Source: an uncultured Myxococcaceae bacterium
Lineage (GTDB): Bacteria; Myxococcota; UBA727; JABDBI01
Length of the DNA: 64,000 nucleotides
Direction of reading: 5' to 3'
Assembly (NCBI GenBank): GCA_964635635.1
Contig: CAZWPE010000002.1
Location: 22,312 to 86,311 of the forward strand
In this document: positions 22,402 to 25,400 of the stretch, one piece after another
Layout: each line of letters opens with the position of its first letter
Position numbering within the stretch: the first letter of the stretch is position 1
Program-made: the position numbers and the translations under genes
The notes under the pieces: model-generated
Databases searched by the model: none
The model's input: only the letters and a program-made list of their open reading frames with translations
Told to the model about the DNA's origin: nothing

Positions 22402-25400
22402 ATGCAGCTAGCCCACCAGGCCGTACAATCTAGTTTCACACGTCCCACTGTTTTGGTGGCGAAGAATGCTGCTCATGCAGAGCTTGTGATGCGCGATGTG
22501 CGCTTTTTGCTCGGCGCTGAATCAAATCAAGCGTTGTTGTTGTTGCCGGACGAAAATACGCCATATCAAGCAACATCCCCAGATCCGGTTTGGAAGATGG
22601 ATCAGCTGGCGATTTTGCAAAAGCTGGCTGCGGGTGAGAGATATCGTGTTTTAGTGACCTGCCCAGAGATGCTGGTGACGCGCATTTTGCCGACAAGCAT
22701 TTTGCAGGATGAATTGCAGTTCATCTCTCAGGGCGGTGAATTCCCCAGAGAGGACCTAATCGCCCGTCTTGTGCGTGCTGGATACACACGAGTCAATCAG
22801 GTCGAAGACCCGGGAACGTTTTCGGTGCGCGGCAGCATCGTCGATTATTTCTGGCCTGGAAATCTAAACCCAGTTCGTGTGGATTTGTTTGGCGATGAAG
22901 TCGAGCGACTCTATGAGTTCGATATTGGTACAGGCAAGAAGGTCAGAGATTTAGAAGATGCGCAGTTTGGGTTAGTGCGCGATATTATCTTAAGCGATGA
23001 GTGTATCACTCGGGCCATACAGCGCTTGCGAGATCTGGCTGACGAGGTTGAATACCCTACGGTTAAGCTCAAAGCAAAGCTTGCTGACTTAAGCAATAAG
23101 ATTGCATTTTTTGGTATCGAAAGTTTGTTGCCTGCTTTCTATGAACAACTTGGCTCTGTGAACGAGTTGGTTGAGAAGGACGCTTGGATTTATGAGGACC
23201 CAGAGGGTTTTGAAAGCACCGCGCTTTTGTGGCGAACAGACTGGGAAGAGCATTATAAGAAGGCCTTGGTAGCTGGTGAGTTGTGTTTTGAGCCAAGTGT
23301 ATTCTTGCTCGACAAAATCCCCCTCAATCCCCCTTTGCTCAAGGGGGAAGAGATACCCCCCTTTGAAAAAGGTGGGCTGGGGGGGATTTTACAGCTCGCC
23401 ACCCAAATCCACGCCCTTCACCAACAAAATATCACAGTTTTTTTGCCAGTTGCAGGCACCGAGGGAGTGCACCGTTATAAAGAGTTGTTAGAACCTCACG
23501 GAGTTCAAGTGAGGCATTTAAGCACCGCAGTTAGCTTTTTCACAGCGTTTAGTTTCCAAAGCTCGATTCATGCCTATACTTTTGTCGCAAAACCAGAACC
23601 GCCTGCGCAGAGTGGAGTCTTTGAAAAACTTGGCCTGGCAATATTCTCACCAGATGACGTCTTCGGCCCCAGAGTTAAGCGCGAAGTTAGCAAGAAAGGT
23701 GGATTCAAAACAACGCTGGCTGATTTGGAGCCAGGTGATGCCATTGTCCACGTTGACCACGGTATTGGCCTGTTCAAAGGCTTAACGAGGTTAAATGTTC
23801 GGGGCATTGAACAAGATTACTTGCTCTTAACCTATGCAGGTGATGACAAACTTTATTTGCCTGTTCACCGCATTAATCAAATACAGCCCTATTCAGGTGC
23901 CGAAGGCTCAGCGCCTAAACTTGATAAACTTGGCGGCCAAGGTTGGCAAACTCGTAAGAAGAAGGTCCAAGAAGCTGTCCTGGCCATGGCGCAGGACCTG
24001 CTTAATCTGTATGCCAAACGTGAGTTGGTGAAACGGCCGCTTTTCAAAGCACCAGCAGAGCAGTTCGCAGAGTTTGAGGCAGAGTTCCCGTTCGAGACAA
24101 CACCGGATCAGCAAAAGGCCATCGATGAAGTTTTGGCTGACATGCAAAAAGACAAGCCGATGGATCGCCTGATTTGCGGTGATGTTGGTTATGGTAAGAC
24201 TGAGGTTGCGATGCGAGCAGCCATGCTCGCAGTTTTGAGCGGCCGCCAGGTGGCTGTGTTGGCTCCAACGACGATTTTGGCTCAGCAGCATGGGATTACT
24301 TTCGCAGAGCGTTTTAAGAATTCGGGTGCTCGTGTTGAGGTGGTTTCGCGTTTTCAAAAGCCATCTCAAGTACGTGAGATTATTGCCCAGGCCAAATCTG
24401 GTCAGGTGGATATTTTAATTGGAACGCATCGTATTTTATCTGAAGACGTTGGCTTCAAAAACTTGGGGCTTGTGATTGTGGATGAAGAGCAGCGATTCGG
24501 CATCAAAGACAAAGAGCATCTCAAGAAACTCAGAACTCACACAGATATTTTAACTTTGTCTGCGACGCCAATCCCTAGAACTTTACAGATGGGTTTCTTT
24601 GGGATCCGTGATTTGAGTGTGATTGAAACTCCACCAGTGGATAGGCGTGCAATCCGAACGTCTTTGATCCGATTTGAAGATGAAGTGATCCGCGAGAATA
24701 TTTTGCGCGAGATACAGCGTGGCGGGCAGGTTTACTTTGTTCATAATCGAGTCGATACGATTTATGGCAAGGCGGATTATCTGCGAAGTATTGTTCCTGA
24801 AGCACGCATCGAAGTGGCTCATGGTCAGATGAACGAGCATGCGCTTGAAGAAACCATGATTCGATTTATGAAGCATGAGTTTAATGTTCTTGTCTGCACA
24901 ACGATTATTGAGACAGGAATTGACGTATCCACAGCAAACACGATGTTTGTAGACCATGCGGATGATTTTGGACTCTCGCAACTTTATCAGCTCCGAGGCC
25001 GTATTGGCCGTAGCAAAGAGCGAGCTTTTGCGTATTTGGTGATTCCAAGCAGCGAAGAAGGTCTTACCCCGATTGCTCGAAAGCGCTTAGAAATCTTGCA
25101 GCGCTTTAGTGAACTTGGAGCTGGTTTTAGAATCGCTCAGCATGATTTAGAACTACGAGGAGCAGGGGATTTATTAGGCAAGAGCCAGCATGGTCATGTG
25201 GCTGCTGTCGGGTATGATTTGTACTCTGAGTTGCTTAAAGAGGCCGTGGAGAATCTTAAGGGTGGTGGAAATCATGATGCGCCAGACCCAGATGTTCTCG
25301 CACCGGTCGCTGCTTTGATTCCTGAAAACTATATCTCTGATTTGTCAGAAAGAATGGGTATCTATCAGCGGTTAGCAACAGCTTCGAATGATGCTGCACT

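Follow-up and report, generated by a model that had tools for sequence, protein, structure and literature searches.

A palindromic element read in frame within mfd of a Myxococcaceae bacterium belongs to a dispersed repeat family that adjoins DUF559 nuclease genes

We analysed a 64,000-nt stretch of DNA from an uncultured Myxococcaceae bacterium (GenBank assembly GCA_964635635.1, contig CAZWPE010000002.1, positions 22,312 to 86,311; hereafter the window), in which a 77-nt palindromic element lies within mfd, the gene for the transcription-repair coupling factor, and is translated as part of it. With a probability of roughly 0.6, we regard this element as a non-autonomous mobile palindrome, similar to REPINs (doublets of repetitive extragenic palindromic (REP) sequences) or to MITEs (miniature transposable elements with inverted repeats), whose reading frame has been kept by selection in a disordered protein loop and which was possibly propagated by a nuclease of the DUF559 family. 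For the host, it is most likely selfish DNA that is tolerated as a linker peptide, and no host role is needed to account for it.

The mfd gene occupies 22402-25713 on the forward strand and encodes a protein of 1103 aa with the full Mfd domain set in Pfam. The element, at 23314-23390 of the same strand, consists of two inverted modules and an 8-nt spacer, AAGAGATA (23348-23355). The first module, X (23314-23347), reads AAAATCCCCC-TCAAT-[CCCCCTTTGCTCAAGGGGG], and the second, X' (23356-23390), which is an imperfect reverse complement of X, reads [CCCCCCTTTGAAAAAGGTGGG]-CTG-GGGGGGATTTT. The 34-nt arms were the longest short-range inverted repeat that a repeat search found in the window. An earlier sequence-only reading had described an element of about 67 nt at 23324-23390; its presence was borne out, but it begins further upstream and is longer. 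As that reading had stated, the frame of mfd is unbroken: the element is read in frame 0 of the open reading frame (ORF) and contributes 25-26 residues, KIPLNPPLLKGEEIPPFEKGGLGGI, and the doublet is free of stops in four of its six frames. Structure prediction, which had been suggested as a check, gave folds far more stable than those of shuffled sequences, at -24 kcal/mol for DNA (z -4.9) and -46 kcal/mol for RNA (z about -7). No Rfam 15 family matched anywhere in the window at the gathering threshold, a permissive scan at the element returned only weak generic-hairpin matches to miRNA models, and a literature search with the sequence strings of the element yielded nothing relevant.

The module itself comprises a 9-bp G/C-tract hairpin (CCCCCCTTT/AAAGGGGGG), a linker of 2-5 nt and a second G-tract, GGGGGGATTT, ending in ATTT. 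Positions 23356-23390 and 28183-28215 of the window fit this description, and 23314-23347 is an inverted variant with a 5-C tract. Scanning of 185,579 species genomes (596 billion bases) with a 17-mer identified at least 117 loci (L001-L117). A random 17-mer would give about 70 matches in as many bases, and the number of matches alone proves nothing; the loci were assigned to one family because flanks that had not been searched for are conserved. GGGGGG-NNN-GGGGGGATTT is kept in nearly all of them, giving the module as CCCCCCTTTGAAAAAGGGGGG-NNN-GGGGGGATTT. In 138 aligned copies, the module ends are AAATCCCCCC and GGGGGG and the linker varies (TA, CTA, CA, TCA and others). Integron attC sites were rejected as an identity, as no GTTRRRY or RYYYAAC core was seen by eye at the module ends of the aligned copies, and a CRISPR reading was ruled out on anatomy. 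The record titles among the matches name Beta- and Gammaproteobacteria, relatives of Geobacter, Desulfobacterales (Desulfobacterota), Omnitrophota, Nitrospirae, Acidobacteriota, Kapaibacteria, Trueperaceae, Elusimicrobia and one archaeal metagenome-assembled genome (MAG). Judged from the shared flanks, the mfd element is demonstrably one member of a repeat family that is dispersed over several phyla. Modules may stand singly, may be joined into inverted pairs of either orientation, or may form the two inverted ends of a unit, about 0.45 kb long, with one small DUF559 gene inside. Within L001-L117 there were 28 X-to-X' pairs within 250 nt, 28 X'-to-X pairs with spacers of 13-50 nt (32 within 700 nt) and 11 direct pairs. 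Separately, an X' copy was noticed exactly at the end of a Logan contig (L119, 10499-10543); such repeats may break short-read assemblies.

The 30-aa peptide of the element was searched against 1.84 billion representative proteins, and this short query gave 19 matches, mostly spurious small ORFs lying over repeats. The one informative match, P0245, is a bona fide XerD-type recombinase (Pfam Phage_integrase, E 3e-43). Its gene, from a related metagenome organism (L220), contains AAAAATCCCCCTTAATCCCCCTTTGCTAAAGGGGGAAAAGATACCCCCCTTTGAAAAAGGGGGGACAGGGGGGATTTTT in frame, almost identical to the 77 nt of mfd and with the same 5-C/6-C asymmetry; the spacer is AAAAGATA, versus AAGAGATA in mfd. The 77-nt doublet is present in at least two unrelated genes, and on this evidence it travels as one unit. 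A short empty loop is found in 10 of the 12 aligned members of the XerD clade (38 nt in L223), and by this alignment a short loop has received an insertion in xerD. P0260, a sister of P0245 with 87% identity from the same assembly as L121, has a quite different palindromic doublet there, GTCATTCCCGCGAAGGCGGGAATCCAGAATCCTGGATCCCGGGTCAAGCCCGGGATGAC, and P0263 has a third element type. Among the other matches, P0242, P0243 and P0246-P0258 (46-360 aa) are translated repeat arrays (..IPLNPPF.KGE..PPFEKGGLGG..) and likely spurious gene calls.

It would be far-fetched to see in the mfd segment an ancestral or convergent low-complexity linker rich in Pro and Gly, or an assembly artefact, with no repeat element involved. 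The peptide is indeed Pro/Gly-rich and the source is a MAG, but the near-identical 77 nt recur in an unrelated gene of an independent assembly, hundreds of module copies stand in independent assemblies, the palindromic structure far exceeds that of shuffles, and the peptide is in no orthologue. This last point was established by aligning orthologues, a test put forward with the sequence-only reading: none of the aligned homologues of Mfd or of the permease described below has the same element peptide, and the element is for this reason not ancestral Mfd sequence.

In the Mfd protein, the element corresponds to residues 305-329, which form a loop that is predicted to be disordered and is flanked by helices 298-301 and 327-341. 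The AlphaFold model shows coil at 303-326, with a pLDDT below 50 at 312-326 and confident helices on either side; the model is poor in the C-terminal half, and the loop region is unaffected by this. The nearest Mfd relatives are MAGs labelled Myxococcota or Myxococcaceae. In the alignment, the element falls in a hypervariable segment between two conserved blocks, in agreement with its earlier placement in a variable linker region. The segment measures 28 aa in the window versus 27-36 aa in the six closest homologues, and about 65 aa in more distant ones; the gain of about 22 residues proposed by the sequence-only reading was not found, as the segment, 25-26 residues of which come from the element, does not surpass in length that of those six. 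We also observed that the clade P0001-P0007 lacks about 35-40 Mfd residues (..T..LRQDILRET.R..) that are present in P0008 and in more distant Myxococcota-like homologues, and that the palindromic elements at Mfd residues of about 300-330 stand where this piece of the protein was deleted.

At the same position of mfd, a different palindromic G/C-tract element was found in five of six sequenced relatives. A second family, termed Y-type, is read in frame at this site in L118 (P0002) and L232 (P0004); L119 (P0006) has another palindrome, AAATCCCTC..[CCCCTCTCCAGTTTCTGGAGAGGGG]TCCAGGGGGAGAGG, and L120 (P0003) yet another, CCTGTCCCCC..GGGGGACAGG. In L231 (P0007), the most distant, the segment has the same length and its palindrome is not significant (z -1.65). 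With other palindromes at this site in five of six relatives and the module in many phyla, the proposal of a lineage-specific insertion was not upheld. The window holds a Y-type element of its own, an intergenic palindrome of 98 nt at 57830-57927 reading [CCCTCTCCCTCTGGGGGAGGGAG]-[ATTTTGGCTCGCCAAAAT]-C-GGGAGGGGG, with perfect 24-nt arms (TTACCCTCTCCCTCTGGGGGAGGG / CCCTCCCCCAGAGGGAGAGGGTAA), the inner hairpin ATTTTGGCTCGCCAAAAT and a DNA fold z of -8.2; it lies between divergent ORFs at 56227-57774 (reverse strand) and 57957-58766 (forward strand).

The second copy of the module in the window is partial and lies at 28157-28215 on the forward strand, in the gene for an ABC permease of the peptide/nickel type (27916-29358, forward strand), at a variable extracytoplasmic loop after the first transmembrane segment. 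It consists of a degenerate left arm, AAATCCCATCCAGTTGGGGAG, and an intact X', CCCCCCTTTGAAAAAGGGGGGGAGGGGGGATTT (28183-28215), and encodes EIPSSWGEIPPFEKGGEGGF. The sequence-only reading had noted this core in an unrelated gene, in frame and with the peptide EIPPFEKGG, and this was confirmed, the frame being the same as in mfd. The 17-mer common to both copies occurs twice in the window versus 0.32 expected by chance (up to 3 mismatches). In L121 (GCA_964484075.1; 91% nucleotide identity), the permease flanks GA(A/G)AT(C/T)CC and GGGATTTATTAGC are kept and enclose a hairpin of another sequence, [CCCCCTCTCCACAGGGTGGAGAGGGGG]CCAGGGGGTGAGGGATTT; at this site, an X singlet was seen in L218 and nothing clear in L219. 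Alignments delimit hypervariable segments at the mfd, permease and xerD sites, where lengths differ in every case by multiples of three, as they must under selection. Compared in this way, the three genes show the same loop being re-occupied by different elements.

The hairpin or its peptide might instead serve the host at mfd, as an mRNA structure tuning translation or decay or as a flexible linker of set length. A stable palindrome at this position in five of six relatives, a segment held at 27-36 aa and an RNA fold as stable as -46 kcal/mol would suit such a role, but the same families are also found between genes and within xerD and the permease, no Rfam family matches, and the mfd of L231 does without a significant palindrome. 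The sequences differ wholly between relatives, with no specific RNA or peptide conserved, and most XerD and some permease orthologues have no element. As relatives share no conserved sequence here and many orthologues are without any element, a host function is unlikely, and we give it little credence.

To compare neighbouring gene families, ORFs of at least 120 aa from the at least 117 loci were clustered. DUF559 was the only family that repeatedly abutted the repeat, at four loci among the matches listed, and each of these genes was bracketed by modules. Other candidates for a partner, including GGDEF proteins and response regulators, ABC ATPases, a short-chain dehydrogenase/reductase (SDR) and leucyl-tRNA synthetase, were, as read from their sequences, set aside as ordinary abundant families that are not adjacent to the repeat. 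The bracketed gene belongs to Pfam PF04480 (E 5e-37), encodes about 115-135 aa and falls in a Vsr-like PD-(D/E)XK nuclease family; the closest solved structure to the protein is 3HRL. In L120, a relative of the source organism, a DUF559 unit lies 3 kb from mfd with the arrangement X'-(16 nt)-ATG...DUF559...-X, the ORF ending inside X.

Metagenomes were then searched with the DUF559 protein alone, and the best 80 of 584 confirmed loci were taken. The module stood beside the DUF559 gene in 71 of these 80, and its density was 4.1 per kb in the DUF559 flanks versus 0.16 per kb in the remainder of these loci. Of the upstream copies, 53 of 62 were X', ending 2-24 nt ahead of the point where the protein match begins; of the downstream copies, 48 of 60 were X, overlapping about the last 30-36 nt of the ORF, a count favoured by the X-encoded C-terminal tail of the query, whereas the upstream count is unbiased. 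Complete X'-DUF559-X units measured 412-471 bp. Outside 30 such units there was no consistent target-site duplication; the palindrome was merely seen to extend by T...A. Ends belonging to the same unit were more alike than ends of different units (0.881 vs 0.845), and none of 2000 permutations reached the observed value. In the loci compared, the module can thus be said to bracket DUF559 genes in a fixed geometry. Both halves of the mfd element have their counterparts in this geometry: its X is of the type at the 3' end of the units (L184, L202, L213), and its X' of the type that precedes the start codon of DUF559 genes by 2-24 nt.

DUF559 genes at a greater distance adjoin G/C-tract palindromes of their own that differ from X, most with a hairpin, a linker or second hairpin and another copy of one arm. 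DUF559 genes on viral contigs (L122-L129 and L133) are likewise flanked by their own palindromes. One of these contigs, L122 (IMGVR_UViG_3300035670_001258, classed as viral), has three tandem X' copies, CCCCCCCTTTAGAAAAGGGGGGTTGGGGGGATTTGCCTACT, with a 41-nt period directly upstream of its DUF559 gene (upstream of 188). Adjoining palindromes were also found at DUF559 genes of N. gonorrhoeae, Deinococcus, Synechocystis, Azospirillum and Sinorhizobium, the last being presumably RIME. In E. coli, the DUF559 gene ycjD ends inside a G/C-tract palindrome (..LSPSPQPSP*), the first repeat copy overlapping the stop, and two further copies lie within 250 nt (L224, 925-1180; K-12 NC_000913.3, between fabI and ycjD). 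Over 5426 E. coli genomes, the median number of places with this repeat is 16, and from its size and copy number it is probably BoxC. Its architecture, a C-tract arm followed by a hairpin, is similar to that of the X module, and the overlap of the first copy with the 3' end of ycjD matches that of X in the DUF559 units, whereas its sequence differs from the X module. BoxC elements are imperfect G/C-tract palindromes of about 50-56 bp with alternative pairings, at about 20-30 copies per genome (PMC2267715). Such flanks were absent from the most distant DUF559 homologues (at most 41% identity, L130-L137); no plasmid matched the L120 unit in a blastn search, and tblastn against phages gave only distant DUF559 homologues without the relevant flanks.

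The main rival is that the repeats form an ordinary REP/REPIN family moved by a REP-associated tyrosine transposase (RAYT, of the Y1/HUH type) encoded elsewhere, with DUF559 as a bystander, a frequent neighbour or hitch-hiker; we judge this improbable, if less so than a host function. The layout resembles that of REPs and bacterial interspersed mosaic elements (BIMEs), with singlets, inverted pairs of both orientations and few direct pairs; the hairpin-centred modules match the REP pattern, no target-site duplication was seen, and inverted REPs are known to flank RAYT genes (PMC2817692, PMC3333891). The inverted doublets and alternating clusters of REPINs and BIMEs are all found here, the mfd element being an X-to-X' doublet. 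The X module, however, is without the GTAG/CGTC tag that defines two large REP superfamilies (PMC3733652). No transposase-like family recurs in the at least 117 loci, where housekeeping families do, a RAYT-profile search not having been made. The DUF559 geometry, with X' ending 2-24 nt before the match, X in the last codons and 71 of 80 loci concerned, is too exact for chance, and the association recurs with unrelated repeats in distant lineages.

A small nuclease gene between inverted modules, and a repeat sequence particular to each gene lineage, are features that the DUF559 units share with REPIN-RAYT systems, as are short hairpin modules in singlets and inverted doublets without target duplication. 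The bracketed gene, in contrast, is a PD-(D/E)XK Vsr-like nuclease (PF04480) and not a Y1/HUH transposase, and its C-terminal tail is encoded by a portion of the X module. The X module is also nearly identical across phyla, whereas REPIN-RAYT systems are described as mostly inherited vertically (bioRxiv 10.1101/2022.05.22.493013). IS-derived MITEs are similarly short, non-coding and dispersed, have terminal inverted repeats and sometimes lie in frame in genes (PMC10969869). The family described here differs from them in having inverted ends without target-site duplication and no parent insertion sequence (IS) with a DDE transposase; the only gene between matching ends is DUF559 (about 115-135 aa).

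To our knowledge, no gene has been linked to the Rickettsia palindromic elements (RPEs), to which the sequence-only reading had likened the mfd element. The likeness holds insofar as a dispersed palindrome stands in frame in variable loops of unrelated genes, and does not extend to its being an RPE or peculiar to one lineage, as the module is found in many phyla. RPEs, too, are palindromic selfish repeats in frame in unrelated housekeeping genes, at fold-compatible places where they add a conserved peptide (PMC10969869), and in-frame palindromes at permissive sites were found here in mfd, the permease and xerD, with an AlphaFold-predicted disordered loop in Mfd. By description, however, RPEs are elements of about 100-150 bp confined to Rickettsia, whereas here a 77-nt element with a 34-nt cross-phylum module is found in a Myxococcota-like MAG; size, host and spread of the module place it outside the Rickettsia sequence families. 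The mfd-type element, moreover, appears mostly to replace earlier elements in the same loop, and an associated gene, DUF559, is visible. The remark that such elements are rarely reported outside Rickettsia was overstated: in-frame palindromic repeats are known as RPEs, intragenic ERIC and cyanobacterial MITEs, and a 2024 review, which treats RPEs as the extreme, describes in-frame fusions through MITEs inside genes as 'not unusual' (PMC10969869).

Several observations weigh against the view that the mfd element is a mobile palindrome possibly propagated by DUF559. The association gives no direction, and DUF559 genes might be places where the repeats prefer to land, or passengers; the bias of the query toward downstream X copies, described above, is to be added to this. 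No DUF559 gene is present in the 64-kb window, and we know of no DUF559 activity on such DNA, nor was any found in the open-access literature searched. With only three such elements in its 64 kb, the window is sparsely occupied for a family that is active. The mfd segment of L231 is equal in length without a significant palindrome, and no empty mfd site was found among the relatives, so that the argument for insertion there draws on xerD and on family membership. The open-access literature on DUF559, COG2852, PF04480 and YcjD, in the portions available, holds no link of the family to repeats, and two surveys of PD-(D/E)XK nucleases mention DUF559 only as a Vsr relative (PMC3424549 is one of them).

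For the mobile palindrome preferred here, the history would be one of insertion followed by replacement. The doublet would have reached mfd, and a partial copy the permease, by entering an earlier palindrome in a permissive loop or by taking its place; at mfd the element replaced was probably of Y-type. A resident palindrome probably attracts or templates its successor, the same loops being overwritten repeatedly. The elements may persist through their open frames, through selection against frame-breaking versions and through a disordered loop that tolerates the peptide. Going by the association, a DUF559 nuclease encoded elsewhere in the genome may recognise the module of hairpin plus G-tract and spread the repeats in trans, in the manner of RAYTs with REPs and REPINs. 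A nick-and-copy mechanism is plausible but unproven for DUF559, plausible because the family shares a PD-(D/E)XK clade with Vsr and I-Bth0305I. The Vsr-like homing endonucleases of the I-Bth0305I family, which are free-standing or borne by introns, belong with DUF559 to clade 58 of this superfamily (PMC3424549). Theirs are small selfish nuclease genes that spread by target cutting and repair copying, a mode that would fit the copy-and-replace history; they differ from the present case, which has no intron or intein context, repeats that spread without the gene and a DUF559 cleavage activity that is putative.

A wider proposal may be advanced tentatively, at clearly lower confidence than the account of the mfd element. 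DUF559 proteins, including YcjD of E. coli, might be the missing enzymes behind G/C-tract palindromes (BoxC-like, RIME-like, X and Y), each lineage spreading its own module by a cut-and-copy ('patch' or homing-like) route that overwrites palindromes without target duplication and rewrites loops in essential genes such as mfd and xerD. This would constitute a second symbiosis of repeat and nuclease, independent of REPIN-RAYT and crossing phyla.

Two further features of the window were noted. The string GGGGGGATTT/GGGGGGATTTTTTT at 9539-9548 was considered as a module end; it encodes KKIPPA in a transporter-like ORF (8830-10104, reverse strand), has no hairpin and was judged a chance occurrence, the 10-mer GGGGGGATTT being found 8 times in the window against 4.75 expected, which is not above chance. 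An 80-nt direct repeat (37536-37615 and 38627-38706; 89% identity, 1091 nt apart) may mark adjacent paralogous genes.

Taken alone, the mfd finding is a further member of the known in-frame palindromic repeats. What goes beyond these is that the module is identical across phyla, that the same protein loops have been overwritten repeatedly and that the repeat is paired with DUF559. For annotation, the module calls for caution, as it yields many spurious small ORFs (peptides of the PPFEKGG type) and may break assemblies at contig ends. In-frame palindromes of this kind show selfish DNA rewriting the surface loops of essential proteins, and the Mfd, XerD and permease loops, which hold different repeat-encoded peptides in close relatives, amount to an experiment that nature has made on the replacement of loops. 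Repeat and nuclease gene are paired tightly, in a set orientation and across phyla, and this joins the spread of BoxC-type repeats and the function of the widespread DUF559/YcjD family into one question in E. coli.

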